Shown here piece after piece: positions 31,826-51,272 of a DNA stretch of 64,000 bases. How positions within the stretch are numbered: the first letter of the stretch is position 1; each line of letters starts with the position of its first letter. The stretch is from Eledone cirrhosa (lineage: Eukaryota). The notes below the pieces were generated by a model. It searched no databases, was not told the origin of the DNA, and was given only the letters and a program-made list of their open reading frames with translations. Where the stretch lies: contig OZ024752.1 of NCBI GenBank assembly GCA_964016885.1, positions 10,354,001-10,418,000 on the forward strand. Direction: 5' to 3'. The position numbers and the translations under genes are program-made.

Positions 31826-32081
31826 TAATTAATATTAATTCAAAATATCAACATAAATAGACATTCGTGTGATCAAGTATATTTTATTATACATATTTCA
31901 GAGGTACTGAGCTATATTCAACAGTACATCCTCATCAGATAAAATAAGATGATGCATGACATACCCTGACTAAGTAGATGATTAAAATGCAGTAGTTGGT
32001 TAAAATTCAGTCATGACTGCCATGACTGAATTTTAACCATCTACTTAGTCAAGGTATGTCTATTTTTGTTAATATTTTGAA

Positions 32082-42482: not shown

Positions 42483-42537
42483 ACTGCCTGAAGAGGTCAC
42501 AGCCAAAGATGGCTGTCACCGAAATATATATAGCAGT
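42483..42537 (+). ncRNA. type I hammerhead ribozyme
   Basis: ACUGC-CUGAAGA-GGU.c.ACAGCCA(aaga)UGGCUGU.c.ACC-GAAA-UAUAUA-U-A-GCAGU; predicted cleavage after 42532. Confidence 0.85.
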
Positions 42538-46405: not shown

Positions 46406-47795
46406 AACAACCTCACCACCAGAAACAGCACACTACCAACGTTCTACCAACTCATTAAATCCTACAAAACCTGTGTTACTCTAAAGATAAGACCAATTGT
46501 CTTGAGTATAGAAGGACCCTTCTATAAAATCTCCTGGTTACTCTCCCAGATCCTCAAGCCGATACTTGCTACTTTTACTTGATATGTCAGCAGCTCCTGT
46601 TTTTTTTTCAGATACATAGATGATATCCTCATCCTCACATTATCCCATGAAGAGGCCGACATAATATCTACTGTATTTTCAAACACATAAATTACGATTT
46701 ACCACAGAACACCCCGATATAACTGGTTCCTGCTGGACTTGCTACTAAGAGTAACAGAAGAACGTACTATATATACCTACTTCAATAGGAACCCGGTTTG
46801 TGCATTATAGAGCATCCCTTCCCCATTGGTGCTAAAACCGGATACATAAGAAATGAACTTACACGTATCTGGAATAAATGTAGCGAGGCAGGGCACCAGC
46901 TCACTCACAGTGCACACTTCATTAAATGTACTGAAGCCGAACGGATACCGAATATCCCCAGTGAATCGACTGAAGAATCGAAGGCGCCGCAGGCATAAGA
47001 CCTTCTCTAATACCTGCTTCATGAAATTATCACATTTCAGCGAAAGCATAACCACAGGTATCCGCAGAGTTATCATAAAACAAGGTCTTGAGATACAGTG
47101 ACCACACTCCTACCCTTCACTGCATTGATACATGTTTTAAAAGCAATCGAGAGACAAAAATCAATGCTCGCTGACTAACTGCCCTATCCACTATACAGGT
47201 ATGTGCCAGAGTGCACGTGATATACCGGATTGAATGCAACAAATGTAAAGAGTTCTACATTGGTAGCACGACACAAGCACTTCATACTCGCATTGAAGAA
47301 CACGTCAACTCACGCGCATCTTCATTTAAAAACATTGACAAATGTAGAACATCAACCAAAATATTACCGTTACCATTAAAGATAGTGATAGAAATGTGGG
47401 CAGTTTAAGAATTTAGGAAGCCTTGCTCACACGTAGACTCAACCTTCAAATAAATAATATATTAGAACTCAGCACACAGTACTTGACATAAAAGACACAC
47501 CCACAGGCACACAAACTAAACATCTCATACATAAAAAGAAAACTGATTTCATGAAATACTATAATCTCAAAGAGAGGAAATTGGAACATTATCCACTGAA
47601 AGTTCCTTAAATCCCGATGAAGGGACTTTTAGGTAACAAAATATTGGACAGAATAAAGAGCAACAAAAAACAAAAAGATTGCCGGGTAACTTACTTTCCG
47701 TTACCTCATCTTACAGTCCATGTTACATTGTTTAGCCTTCTATCACTTTCAACGTTTTATGTTCAAGGAAACTACATGCTTCAAGGAAACTACAA
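46405..47795 (+). mobile_element. decayed Penelope-like retroelement (RT + GIY-YIG endonuclease + 3' region)
   Basis: LPTFYQLIKSYK...KIRPIV...WLLSQILKP; FRYIDDILI; GYIRNELTRIWNKCS; Cys-rich linker; VIYRIECNKCKEFYIGSTTQALHTRIEEH; possible decayed hammerhead at ~47612-47650; (TA)n on both sides. Confidence 0.85.
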
Positions 47796-48632
47796 CACAC
47801 ACACACATATTATATATATATATATATATATAGAGTGTGGTATACATGCGTATGCATATATATATATAATTACATATATTCACATGCATATACACAAACT
47901 CGTGTATATACACATCTAAGGCCTTGAAAAGCTTGTTGAAAACACAGGCCAGACCAGCTTGGCGCCGCTTTTGTGTGTGTTCGAGCGTGCGTGCGTGTTT
48001 AATCCACAACAAATAACATTGTCAAAACAGCATGATGAACATGTCCCTGTTGCATTCCCGCATTAGTTATAATTTGTTAATAAAAAACGTCGGGTATTTA
48101 TGTTACAACCTAATACATGAATATGTTTGTGTGAACTTGTTATTTTGGTAGTACACATATAATATAATCTAATTGATTCAGAGAAGAAATAAGAGATAAT
48201 ATGACGGTCAAATTACTTCTCGTTAATTCAGATCCTATGGCTTTTAATTTTCCCATGCGTTAACCTAGAAATTGACACTTTACTCAAAATATTCATTCAT
48301 ATAATAATATATTACCCTCAGATATCCTAACGTCCAAAACAGTAGTTATTCCTTTCATGACTCTACATTTTGACATTCTTGTATATTCTTCCGTATCATA
48401 AGTAATATAAAAAAAATCGCCACGACAAATATATATATATATATATGTATATGAAATACGTCCCTTCACGCACAAGGCGCCAAGGTACGCATGTATTGTC
48501 CAACCAAGTGCCAATGTGGTTCAATGGCGGGTTAATAAATTAACGAGCCAGAACAAATATAAACAAGGTTTAGTAAATAATGAAAAAGTTTCAAAATAAA
48601 TTTTAAAAAAATTGACTTTACCTACTATAGTT

Positions 48633-48716
48633 ACCTTTACCGATCGGTTTCGAATCCCAAAAATAAAACGGAGACCATACGGCCTTCGTTGCAAAGAAAG
48701 ATTCTCGTCAGAAGGT
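48633..48716 (-). ncRNA. type I hammerhead ribozyme (inverted monomer)
   Basis: Exact reverse complement of 49272-49355. Confidence 0.85.
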
Positions 48717-49271
48717 TCTTTTCATTCAAAGAATATAAAATTCCTGAATTTAAATCACAAACTAGCGCTATCAAAAACTGTTCCTGGGATGAGAGTGGAT
48801 GATGTAGAACAGGTTTATCAAGGGCCGTAGCAAAGATAGAGGCAAAAGGAGGTAGGTCAAACTAGCCACCGCTATTGCTAGCAGCAGTCGGAATGACCCG
48901 TTTTGTTCTCAACGTTGTTCTCATTATTTACTAAACCTTGTTTATATTTGTTCTGGCTCGTTAATTTATCAACCCGCCATTGAACCACATTGGCACTTGG
49001 TTGGACAATACATGCGTACCTTGGCGCCTTGTGCGTGAAGGGACGTATTTCATATTACTACTACCTCCACTAACGTTGAGAACAAACCGGGTCATTCCGA
49101 CTGCTGCTAGCAATAGCGGTGGCTAGTTTGACCTACCTCCTTTTGCCTCTATCTTTGCTACGGCCCTTGATAAACCTGTTCTACATCATCCACTCTCATC
49201 CCAGGAACAGTTTTTGATAGCGCTAGTTTGTGATTTAAATTCAGGAATTTTATATTCTTTGAATGAAAAGA

Positions 49272-49355
49272 ACCTTCTGACGAGAATCTTTCTTTGCAAC
49301 GAAGGCCGTATGGTCTCCGTTTTATTTTTGGGATTCGAAACCGATCGGTAAAGGT
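49272..49355 (+). ncRNA. type I hammerhead ribozyme (monomer 1)
   Basis: ACCUU-CUGACGA-GAAUC(43 nt)GAUUC-GAAA-CC(GAUC)GG-U-A-AAGGU; GUA triplet, predicted cleavage after 49350. Confidence 0.88.
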
Positions 49356-49752
49356 AACTATAGTAGGTAAAGTCAATTTTTAAAAATTTATTTTGAAACT
49401 TTCATTATTTACTAAACCTTGTTTATATTTGTTCTGGCTCGTTAATTTATTAACCCGCCATTGAACCACATTGGCACTTGGTTGGACAATACATGCGTAC
49501 CTTGGCGCCTTGTGCGTGAAGGGACGTATTTCATATTACTACTACCTCCACTAACGTTGAGAACAAACCGGGTCATTCCGACTGTTGCTAGCAATAGCGG
49601 TGGCTAGTTTGACCTACCTCCTTTTGCCTCTATCTTTGCTACGGCCCTTGATAAACCTGTTCTACATCATCCACTCTCATCCCAGGAACAGTTTTTGATA
49701 GCGCTAGTTTGTGATTTAAATTCAGGAATTTTATATTCTTTGAATGAAAAGA

Positions 49753-49836
49753 ACCTTCTGACGAGAATCTTTCTTTGCAACGAAGGCCGTATGGTCTCCG
49801 TTTTATTTTTGGGATTCGAAACCGATCGGTAAAGGT
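49753..49836 (+). ncRNA. type I hammerhead ribozyme (monomer 2)
   Basis: Identical motif; predicted cleavage after 49831. Confidence 0.88.
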
Positions 49837-50235
49837 AACTATAGTAGGTAAAGTCAATTTTTTAAAATTTATTTTGAAACTTTTTCATTATTTACTAAAC
49901 CTTGTTTATATTTGTTCTGGCTCGTTAATTTATTAACCCGCCATTGAACCACATTGGCACTTGGTTGGACAATACATGCGTACCTTGGCGCCTTGTGCGT
50001 GAAGGGACGTATTTCATATTACTACTACCTCCACTAACGTTGAGAACAAACCGGGTCATTCCGACTGTTGCTAGCAATAGCGGTGGCTAGTTTGACCCAC
50101 CTCCTTTTGCCTCTATCTTTGCTACGGCCCTTGATAAACCTGTTCTACATCATCCACTCTCATCCCAGGAACAGTTTTTGATAGCGCTAGTTTGTGATTT
50201 AAATTCAGGAATTTTATATTCTTTGAATGAAAAGA

Positions 50236-50319
50236 ACCTTCTGACGAGAATCTTTCTTTGCAACGAAGGCCGTATGGTCTCCGTTTTATTTTTGGGATTC
50301 GAAACCGATCGGTAAAGGT
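50236..50319 (+). ncRNA. type I hammerhead ribozyme (monomer 3)
   Basis: Identical motif; predicted cleavage after 50314. Confidence 0.88.
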
Positions 50320-50603
50320 AACTATAGTAGGTAAAGTCAACTTTTTAAAATTTATTTTGAAACTTTTTCATTATTTACTAAACCTTGTTTATATATATAT
50401 ATATATATATATATATCGCCACGACAAATAAATATATATATTAAAATATAAATATGAATAAAATAGATGTTCTTTTGATCAATTAAATTTTATTAATACA
50501 TATATTTTAATATTAATAACTCTGGAAAAATATTCACTGCAGAGTGCTTCCAATCTACTGTAAAACTCATTCTTTGATATACTCATTGAATCTTGTTTAA
50601 CTC

Positions 50604-50638
<35 letters not shown>

Positions 50639-51272
50639 GACGAGATTAGAGGAAACGATGTGTTGCGTGCTATCTAAATTATTTATCTGTCCCGATATTT
50701 CGAGATAAAATCTCATCTTCGGAGGTCTTCAAATGTCTTCCCATTTTCTATACCATACATAATACCTACAAGCAAACTATAACTTTAAAATCAATAAATA
50801 TAGTTTCCCATTATCTCACTAGATATCACTCCATCTCGAATCACATTTCGCACAGAAATGCCCCGTTTCTTTCTTCTGAAACAAATCATGGTCTCTAATT
50901 CCTCTAATTGTGCTCATCTATTATATAAAGGAATGATCCGCCATAACATTTCTGCTAATTAATTTTTCAAGCACAATTTTGAGAGATAATAGATATAGAT
51001 ACACGTCGCTGTAGATAAAACGATAAAAAATTGTCTGCCAACTGCATTAAAAAAAAAGTAAATTCAATTTCTTGGTATTTTAGATTCTACTATTGATTTT
51101 TATTTCAATACACAGAATTTCATAGTATTCTTCAACGCCATCGCGAGAACGATTGATCTTGATGTTACAATATGCAGACGATAGATATCTTCCTAAGTCA
51201 TACAATTCATTTTCATATTATATATTAATCTTGCATATTTAAATTGATTTATTTTCAGTATTTTTAATTATA

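Follow-up and report, generated by a model that had tools for sequence, protein, structure and literature searches.

The repeat array at 48416-50430 of the window (the whole 64,000-nt stretch of Eledone cirrhosa DNA analysed in this study) probably represents one insertion of a non-coding tandem repeat with a hammerhead, a non-LTR retrozyme, likely made in trans by an RT/GIY-YIG protein of a Penelope-like element (PLE). Its two outer ends are the two standard termini of a genome-wide family and not a chance permutation. A tail at one end combined with an inverted, 5'-truncated copy is known from PLEs, and the locus has this configuration, in this case on a non-autonomous retrozyme whose tail measures 108 nt. 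It is a real, young, non-autonomous hammerhead retroposon with an unusually clean PLE integration signature. The retrozyme, the tail, the inverted copy and the TA targeting are each known; the combination is new, and the rule by which the ends are paired is strict.

Structure of the insertion

The insertion consists of an inverted arm and a 3.06-unit forward array of a 483-nt hammerhead repeat, with a 16-nt flanking duplication, as read from the window sequence and by alignment (Table 1). Units are numbered from the first base after the predicted cleavage site. In the window, TRF gave a period of 483 with 3.1 copies that are 99% alike. The inverted arm covers 467 of the 483 unit positions in the alignment and is a monomer minus 16 nt in permuted register, just as the initial annotation had described it. 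The forward array, which had been placed as starting about 52 nt past the cleavage site, aligns from 48918 (unit 51) across three junctions to 50394 (unit 80); because of a 4-nt insert, it probably begins in fact only at 48921 (unit 54). This agrees well with the earlier placement, and the observation that neither outer end lies at the cleavage site also holds (unit 80 and unit 188-196). The additional bases at the inner junction would be a templated insert and a probable end-joining scar, and an 8-nt palindrome is present at 48910-48917. No ORF of at least 100 aa was found over 48416-50430.

Table 1. Features of the two-arm insertion in window coordinates.
Feature	Position	Strand	Basis
Target-site duplication, left copy, 16 nt	48416-48431	+	exact match to 50415-50430
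(TA)n tract, 17 nt, one interruption, within the duplication, adjoining the B end	48432-48448	.	sequence
Inverted arm (B arm), unit 205 to 483 and 1 to 188; outer 3' end is the fixed long end of the family	48449-48916	-	alignment
Putative type I hammerhead of the inverted arm; predicted cleavage after 48638	48633-48716	-	core motif, stems
Inner junction: GTTC insert plus TCA, repeat of 48905-48911 in the adjoining arm	48917-48923	+	sequence
Forward arm (A arm), 3.06 tandem units of 481-483 nt, beginning at unit ~51-54 and ending at unit 80, the fixed short end	48918-50394	+	TRF, alignment
Putative type I hammerhead 1; predicted cleavage after 49350	49272-49355	+	core motif, stems
Putative type I hammerhead 2; predicted cleavage after 49831	49753-49836	+	core motif, stems
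Putative type I hammerhead 3; predicted cleavage after 50314	50236-50319	+	core motif, stems
(TA)10 tract separating the A end from the right duplication	50395-50414	.	sequence
Target-site duplication, right copy, then a short TA run (50431-50442)	50415-50430	+	exact match to left copy

A CUGACGA/GAAA/GUA core can be read in every unit. The elements follow the hammerhead order of stem I (ACCUU/AAGGU), CUGACGA, a long stem II, GAAA, a short palindromic stem III and GUA; in hammerhead 2, stem I has 5 bp, stem II carries a long insert and stem III is short and palindromic. Across four related families stem I is altered on both sides, which is covariation. Rfam gave no match at the gathering score within the window, and the minimum-energy fold lacks the active hammerhead form (z -1.1). 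The assignment to type I is thus made from the core motif and stem covariation, with Rfam silent, and a self-cutting hammerhead in the unit is predicted. Animal type I hammerheads are described as having a short palindromic helix III and acting as dimers (PMC4209133). None of 100 insertions of the 483-nt family bears an ORF, and the RT/GIY-YIG ORF that an autonomous PLE requires is absent from both the locus and these insertions.

Outer ends and their pairing across the genome

A genome search with the whole unit gave 174 matches, with 40 of 1305 candidates scored. The 100 insertions comprise 40 collected via the whole unit, and hence blind to the ends, 40 via an exact A-end pattern and 20 via a B-end pattern. 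Matches below 90% identity were left out of this main-family census, 10 entries among the first 30 loci duplicated insertions already in the set and were dropped before counting, and internally rearranged arms were excluded from unit comparisons. At L015 and L016 (G000:C3:254.78 Mb) a whole two-arm insertion is tandemly duplicated at 3.4 kb spacing; L016 was kept among the 100 and excluded from the divergence, end and junction statistics.

In the 40 end-blind insertions, 66 of 68 arms have their outer end at unit 80 (A) or at unit 188-196 (B). All A-class ends lie at unit 80 (82/82), B ends lie at unit 188 in 62 of 74 cases and otherwise at 190-196, and A and B are 108 nt apart on the unit. 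Exact patterns yielded at least 250 A ends and at least 80 B ends in the whole genome, both of them minimum numbers, since frequent variants close to the B end escape the patterns. Both outer ends fall on ATAT motifs, and the equally good TTTTATAT motif at unit 382-389 gave 0 ends in these genome-wide exact-pattern counts. A hairpin is predicted just 5' of each outer end, with weak z values of -1.4 and -2.0. TA runs of at least 10 nt adjoin 81 of 81 A ends and 67 of 73 B ends.

Sixty of the 100 insertions have two arms, all of them tail-out. Fifty-seven pair an A with a B end, none is A+A or B+B, and three have one off-site end. When loci had been chosen by their A end (n=40), the partner arm was B in 23 of 23 cases; for loci chosen by their B end (n=20), the partners were seven A, two off-site and no B. 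A single arm only is present in 35 of the 100 insertions, and a very short arm of the opposite type was recognised in 5 of the 40 that were otherwise classed as one-armed. The initial annotation had interpreted the locus as a circular permutation and had proposed to plot the ends of all genomic copies on the unit, with shared, fixed termini at the cleavage site as the outcome speaking against it. The termini are fixed, though not at the cleavage site, and each two-arm insertion has one of each, so that the permutation has to be given up.

Target site and TA tracts

The reported 16-nt duplication proved to be exact: ATCGCCACGACAAATA is found at 48416 and 50415, with no extension on either side, and no third match exists in the 3.0-Gb genome (reversed-pattern control, 1). 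The chance of a 16-nt match near both junctions is about 8e-7. Both (TA)n tracts are enclosed by the duplication. Among 59 two-arm insertions, a duplication of unique sequence is visible in three (L001, L024 and L087; 16, 12 and ~38 nt), and the remaining duplications are hidden in TA or absent. A relaxed duplication search was swamped by TA noise (null 23/300), and the three unique-sequence cases alone were used. In all three, the B arm follows the 3' end of the duplication, at a short TA run of the target; a TA tract separates the A arm from the first bases (AT) of the duplication.

In the window the left copy of the 16-mer is preceded by an A run and no TA tract. Because no such tract precedes the left copy, the tract at 50395-50414 appears to be new. 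At L024, 0 of 19 relatives of the host repeat have TA at the A-side position. Judged from these flanks, the A-side TA tracts of both loci look newly made. TA tract length is alike at A and B ends (p=0.76); in single-arm copies it is 35 nt at 3' vs 16.5 nt at 5' junctions, a weak difference (p=0.025). It is tempting to suggest that TA is made de novo by reiterative synthesis on the AUAU start motif, for which the three cases and the weak length trend fall short of proof. No paralogous empty site for the window locus is present in the assembly. The one usable empty paralogue among all loci belongs to L017, and its target already held a short TA tract. TA tails belonging to other PLEs or retrozymes are often the place of an insertion (L022/L070/L071, L023/L026, L015/L050, L034/L037, L072).

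Evidence for one event per insertion

The earlier reading of the locus as one insertion event stands, with a single duplication framing two abutting arms that share their haplotype. In 45 insertions the A and B arms are concordant at 353 of 356 subfamily-diagnostic sites, as against 34% disagreement in shuffled A/B arm pairs. Sequences diverge by 0.53% inside an arm, by 0.91% from one arm to the other and by 2.14% between insertions. The inner ends are scattered, with 118 distinct positions among 154, and the arm-arm junctions show an overlap of 1-9 nt in 33 of 59 cases, are blunt in 14 of 59 and carry short inserts in the remainder.

Related retrozymes and an intact PLE with the same rule

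At least two further related retrozyme families with 486- and 485-nt units have conserved end positions (L113-L152, L054, L072, L107, L186), and a degenerate pattern gave 294 hammerhead matches to sister and related families in the genome. The unit of the sister family is 486 nt long and 71% identical, with ends at 82 and 190-198. In its 42 loci, all nine simple tail-out pairs are A+B, two rearranged ones are also A and B, and two have one off-site end. Apparent A+A and B+B pairs in the sister families were an artefact of an internal TA motif and were gone after alignment.

The same genome harbors an intact, ORF-bearing PLE family with frames of 742 and 749 aa; the Hydra-type representatives L157, L174 and L196 have 742-847 aa. 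Its order is hammerhead, short end, long end 90 nt further on and then the ATG, and the Hydra-type ends lie ~50 and ~140 nt after the cleavage site. Exact patterns counted 2256 short and 1772 long ends. Among the first 100 short and the first 100 long ends, a short and a long end lie within 8 kb of each other in 43 pairs, of which 43 are tail-out, and there are 0 short-short and 0 long-long tail-out pairs. The likeness to inverted Penelope termini noted in the initial annotation is supported, with tail-out A+B pairs in the retrozyme and the same rule in an intact PLE. This PLE matches the Hydra clade by DKT, CxCx5C and a C-terminal endonuclease, motifs that were read by eye. PLEs of the Hydra clade are reported to insert into (TA)n (PMC8557442). 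At L157, L174 and other loci of L153-L182, the Hydra-type PLE is young and intact (~750 aa, copies 91-99% identical, thousands of ends), and its 90-nt tail is placed in the 5' UTR.

No autonomous element sharing the unit sequence was found in 50 loci of two Hydra-type families (best E 0.62), and no autonomous partner in 40 sister-family loci. No pLTR homologue of the unit was found in the two Hydra-type families, in a genome that holds many more PLE families. A degenerate hammerhead-pattern search for a partner returned sister retrozymes alone. PLE fragments beside sister arms (L122, L127) were considered as partner and rejected; they belong to families that have their own hammerheads and no similarity to the unit.

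Proposed mechanism and alternative explanations

Behind the fixed ends, the one-of-each pairing, the tail-out orientation, the scattered inner ends, the shared haplotype, the duplication and the common rule in a PLE, we infer a course of nicking and priming, an enzyme and a form of RNA as follows. A PLE protein would nick both strands of a TA-rich target, and nicks staggered by ~16-25 nt would provide two 3'-OH primers, each of which may pair with the AUAU just 3' of the predicted hairpin. One cDNA would begin at unit 80 and the other at unit 188 on multimeric retrozyme RNA, the template likely often being a linear, partly cleaved multimer. The cDNAs would break off at differing positions, in some cases at a 5' end cut by the ribozyme, and would be joined head to head via microhomology or templated inserts; gap filling and repair would then give the target duplication. 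A TA-targeting PLE, for instance one of the Hydra type, probably drives the reaction. Points against a PLE reading are the missing autonomous partner of shared sequence, the few visible duplications, the one-armed insertions (35/100) and the length of the tail, 108 nt.

More specifically, and as a tentative proposal, the reaction might be an obligately asymmetric twin priming, in which one protein dimer binds one multimeric RNA and its two RT domains begin at two different fixed starts, one per nicked strand. At least one domain would first stutter on AUAU in a telomerase-like manner and thereby write new (TA)n. Retrozymes would hijack this reaction and would both target and seed TA microsatellites, with no circular intermediate needed. 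In L1 twin priming, two target-primed cDNAs are likewise joined by microhomology within one duplication. There, one primer is on the poly(A) end and the second site is variable, whereas here both sites are internal and fixed.

An alternative to which we give limited credit retains the PLE machinery and the two fixed starts and has the tandem units made from a monomeric circular RNA that is copied round and round. The homogeneity of the units speaks for it: 200 variants are common to all units of an insertion, of which 7 are locus-private, and the nine near-uniform units of L055 show two single changes. Retrozyme circRNAs are documented and have been proposed as RT templates (Cervera and de la Pena, 2020, PMC7229834), and arrays that are always 5'-truncated require a way to regrow. 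However, eight variants are present in only some units, five of them locus-private (0.19 expected). At the window locus, 237T occurs in two adjacent units of four and is absent from the third unit and from the inverted arm. In L018 two markers are in register across the arms (A1=B2, A2=B3), and therefore three different template units in order are needed. In L059 and L066 an arm runs across one junction and ends at the following predicted cleavage site. Inner ends at -4..+1 of that site number 9 of 154 (1.9 expected), and 9 of 53 in a local test (p=0.004) for an interval that was picked post hoc; this excess fits run-off from cut linear RNA.

The partly shared variants could also be explained by gene conversion or unit duplication after insertion, and the proportion of 200 all-shared to 8 partly shared variants fits a single circular template equally well. 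At L010 and L031, private variants are found in units 1 and 3 and not in 2, as a dimeric template or a two-unit duplication would give. Altogether, linear, partly cleaved multimers are favoured in some of the events; a circular template is not required but may occur, and rolling-circle copying may have taken place at some earlier generation. The permuted register had been taken as a sign of rolling-circle reverse transcription. It is no evidence for a circle, because any multimeric RNA with internal start sites gives junction-spanning arms, and the same caution applies to junction-spanning retrozyme copies elsewhere. The free start register of a rolling-circle product is not seen; the register is fixed.

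With priming of both strands from a multimeric template as the preferred reading, the second arm would be a cDNA of its own. It might instead be a fold-back, self-primed copy of the first. Such a copy would share the haplotype, in 46 of 56 pairs the whole of one arm lies within the other, and near-palindromic junctions are seen in L024, L070 and L092, besides the palindrome at the junction in the window; self-priming has been discussed for palindromic PLE junctions (Arkhipova et al., 2013, PMC3846280). Fold-back copying is nevertheless not the rule, because in 10 of 56 pairs neither arm lies inside the other. The two arms of L053 have no overlap in sequence at all, and inner ends are mostly tens to hundreds of bases apart. 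We therefore regard this origin of the inverted arm as very unlikely.

The initial annotation had explained the locus by a circular or multimeric RNA that TA microsatellite DNA primes at AU-rich stretches in general, with permuted copies as the product. Part of it is retained, namely priming on both strands at TA-rich DNA, which is supported by the TA runs into which nearly all A and B ends extend and by the ATAT at both ends. Its generic AU-rich spots did not survive, since the ends are fixed at two sites and TTTTATAT never serves as an end. Free choice moreover predicts A+A and B+B pairs, of which none was seen, and in its full form we consider the explanation scarcely tenable. Equally hard to uphold are two independent insertions in one TA tract, a DNA-level inversion or an assembly artefact: elements do pile up in each other's TA tails and L015/L016 are tandemly duplicated, but one duplication frames both arms, which abut within a few bases and agree in haplotype, and orientation and pairing are strict at 57 loci on many contigs.

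Relation to known retrozymes and PLEs

Metazoan non-LTR retrozymes were defined by Cervera and de la Pena (2020, PMC7229834), who proposed circRNA templates and mobilisation by PLEs. They have been tied to PLE pLTRs via co-occurrence and homology (Li, Clavereau and Pollet, 2026, 10.64898/2026.07.22.740005), and PMC8969392 repeats the retrozyme and PLE points of these papers. The family described here, with its unit of 483 nt, resembles them in that the short units of its tandem array each carry a type I hammerhead, that it lacks an ORF and an LTR, has a low GC content and is dispersed, that its duplications, when present, exceed 4 bp (16, 12 and ~38 nt) and that it co-exists with PLEs. It differs from the accounts available in PMC7229834 and 10.64898/2026.07.22.740005 by its inverted two-arm insertions and fixed internal ends; the word 'inverted' occurs 0 times in the accessible text of PMC7229834. 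Whereas the PLE link of these papers, in the text available, is co-occurrence plus pLTR homology, it is here the integration signature, with no pLTR homologue found in the two Hydra-type families.

PLEs are described as inserting into TA targets with duplications of 8-10 bp; a truncated copy stands in inverted orientation, and a tail of 30-40 bp is often confined to one of the ends (Craig et al., 2021, PMC8557442; Arkhipova et al., 2013, PMC3846280). As in PLEs, the insertions analysed here are 5'-truncated and form partial tandems, an inverted truncated copy is found at the 5' end, an extension is present at one end, a hammerhead lies near the end, and the targets are (TA)n. Unlike PLEs as portrayed there, the family has no RT/GIY-YIG ORF, and its tail is 108 nt vs 30-40. 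The one-of-each pairing is strict here (57/57 with both ends standard), where for PLEs it is given as 'often'. Like the Hydra-clade PLEs, the family has TA targets, a hammerhead and two fixed ends, one per arm, as was the case in 43 of 43 pairs of the PLE in this genome. L157, L174 and L196, in contrast, are autonomous and have no sequence similarity to the unit.

For the Poseidon element PAc, cutting and extension of both strands were reported in vitro, with RT beginning at two internal positions that delimit the tail of genomic copies (Frangieh et al., 2024, PMC11167929). As with PAc, two internal starts downstream of a hammerhead coincide with the genomic ends and the target is AT-rich. The PAc starts are 30-40 nt apart, at an AC-rich stem-loop without homology to the target, whereas the starts here are 108 nt apart, at AUAU able to pair with TA DNA. 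In the PAc assay the start sites were described as used without a strand difference, and therefore the strict one-of-each pairing is not predicted by it. Insertion of PAc is stated not to need ribozyme cleavage (PMC11167929). We found no report of fixed, obligately paired retrozyme ends in the literature searched, to which the older PLE papers that first described the tail, and supplements, may add.

The formation of tandem and inverted PLE insertions has been described as undefined (PMC8557442), and the mode of movement of animal retrozymes has been stated to be unresolved (10.64898/2026.07.22.740005). The young family in this genome provides a genomic read-out consisting of two exact starts, a one-of-each rule, one template haplotype per event and a rule common to an intact PLE. 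The link between PLEs and retrozymes thereby becomes a mechanistic prediction that is open to the existing in vitro PLE assay.

Further PLE-related sequences

Several other PLE sequences were noticed in the window. A putative decayed Penelope-like fragment with many stops lies at 46420-47700 (+), in which RT thumb and GIY-YIG-like motifs can be read by eye, and type I hammerheads of other PLE families are present at 42488 (+), with TA shortly after the cleavage site, and at 31938 (-). A probable PLE fragment with a hammerhead-like motif, also read by eye, is located at 50640-51200 (-), 200 nt to the right of the insertion. Elsewhere in the genome, L066, L068 and L089 contain a further hammerhead family, in which short and long ends are separated by ~90 nt and form tail-out pairs, and L068 has an endonuclease-like fragment between the short and the long end. 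The single-arm insertion at L042:2820-3850 is flanked by an inverted, not direct, 67-nt duplication of the host sequence.
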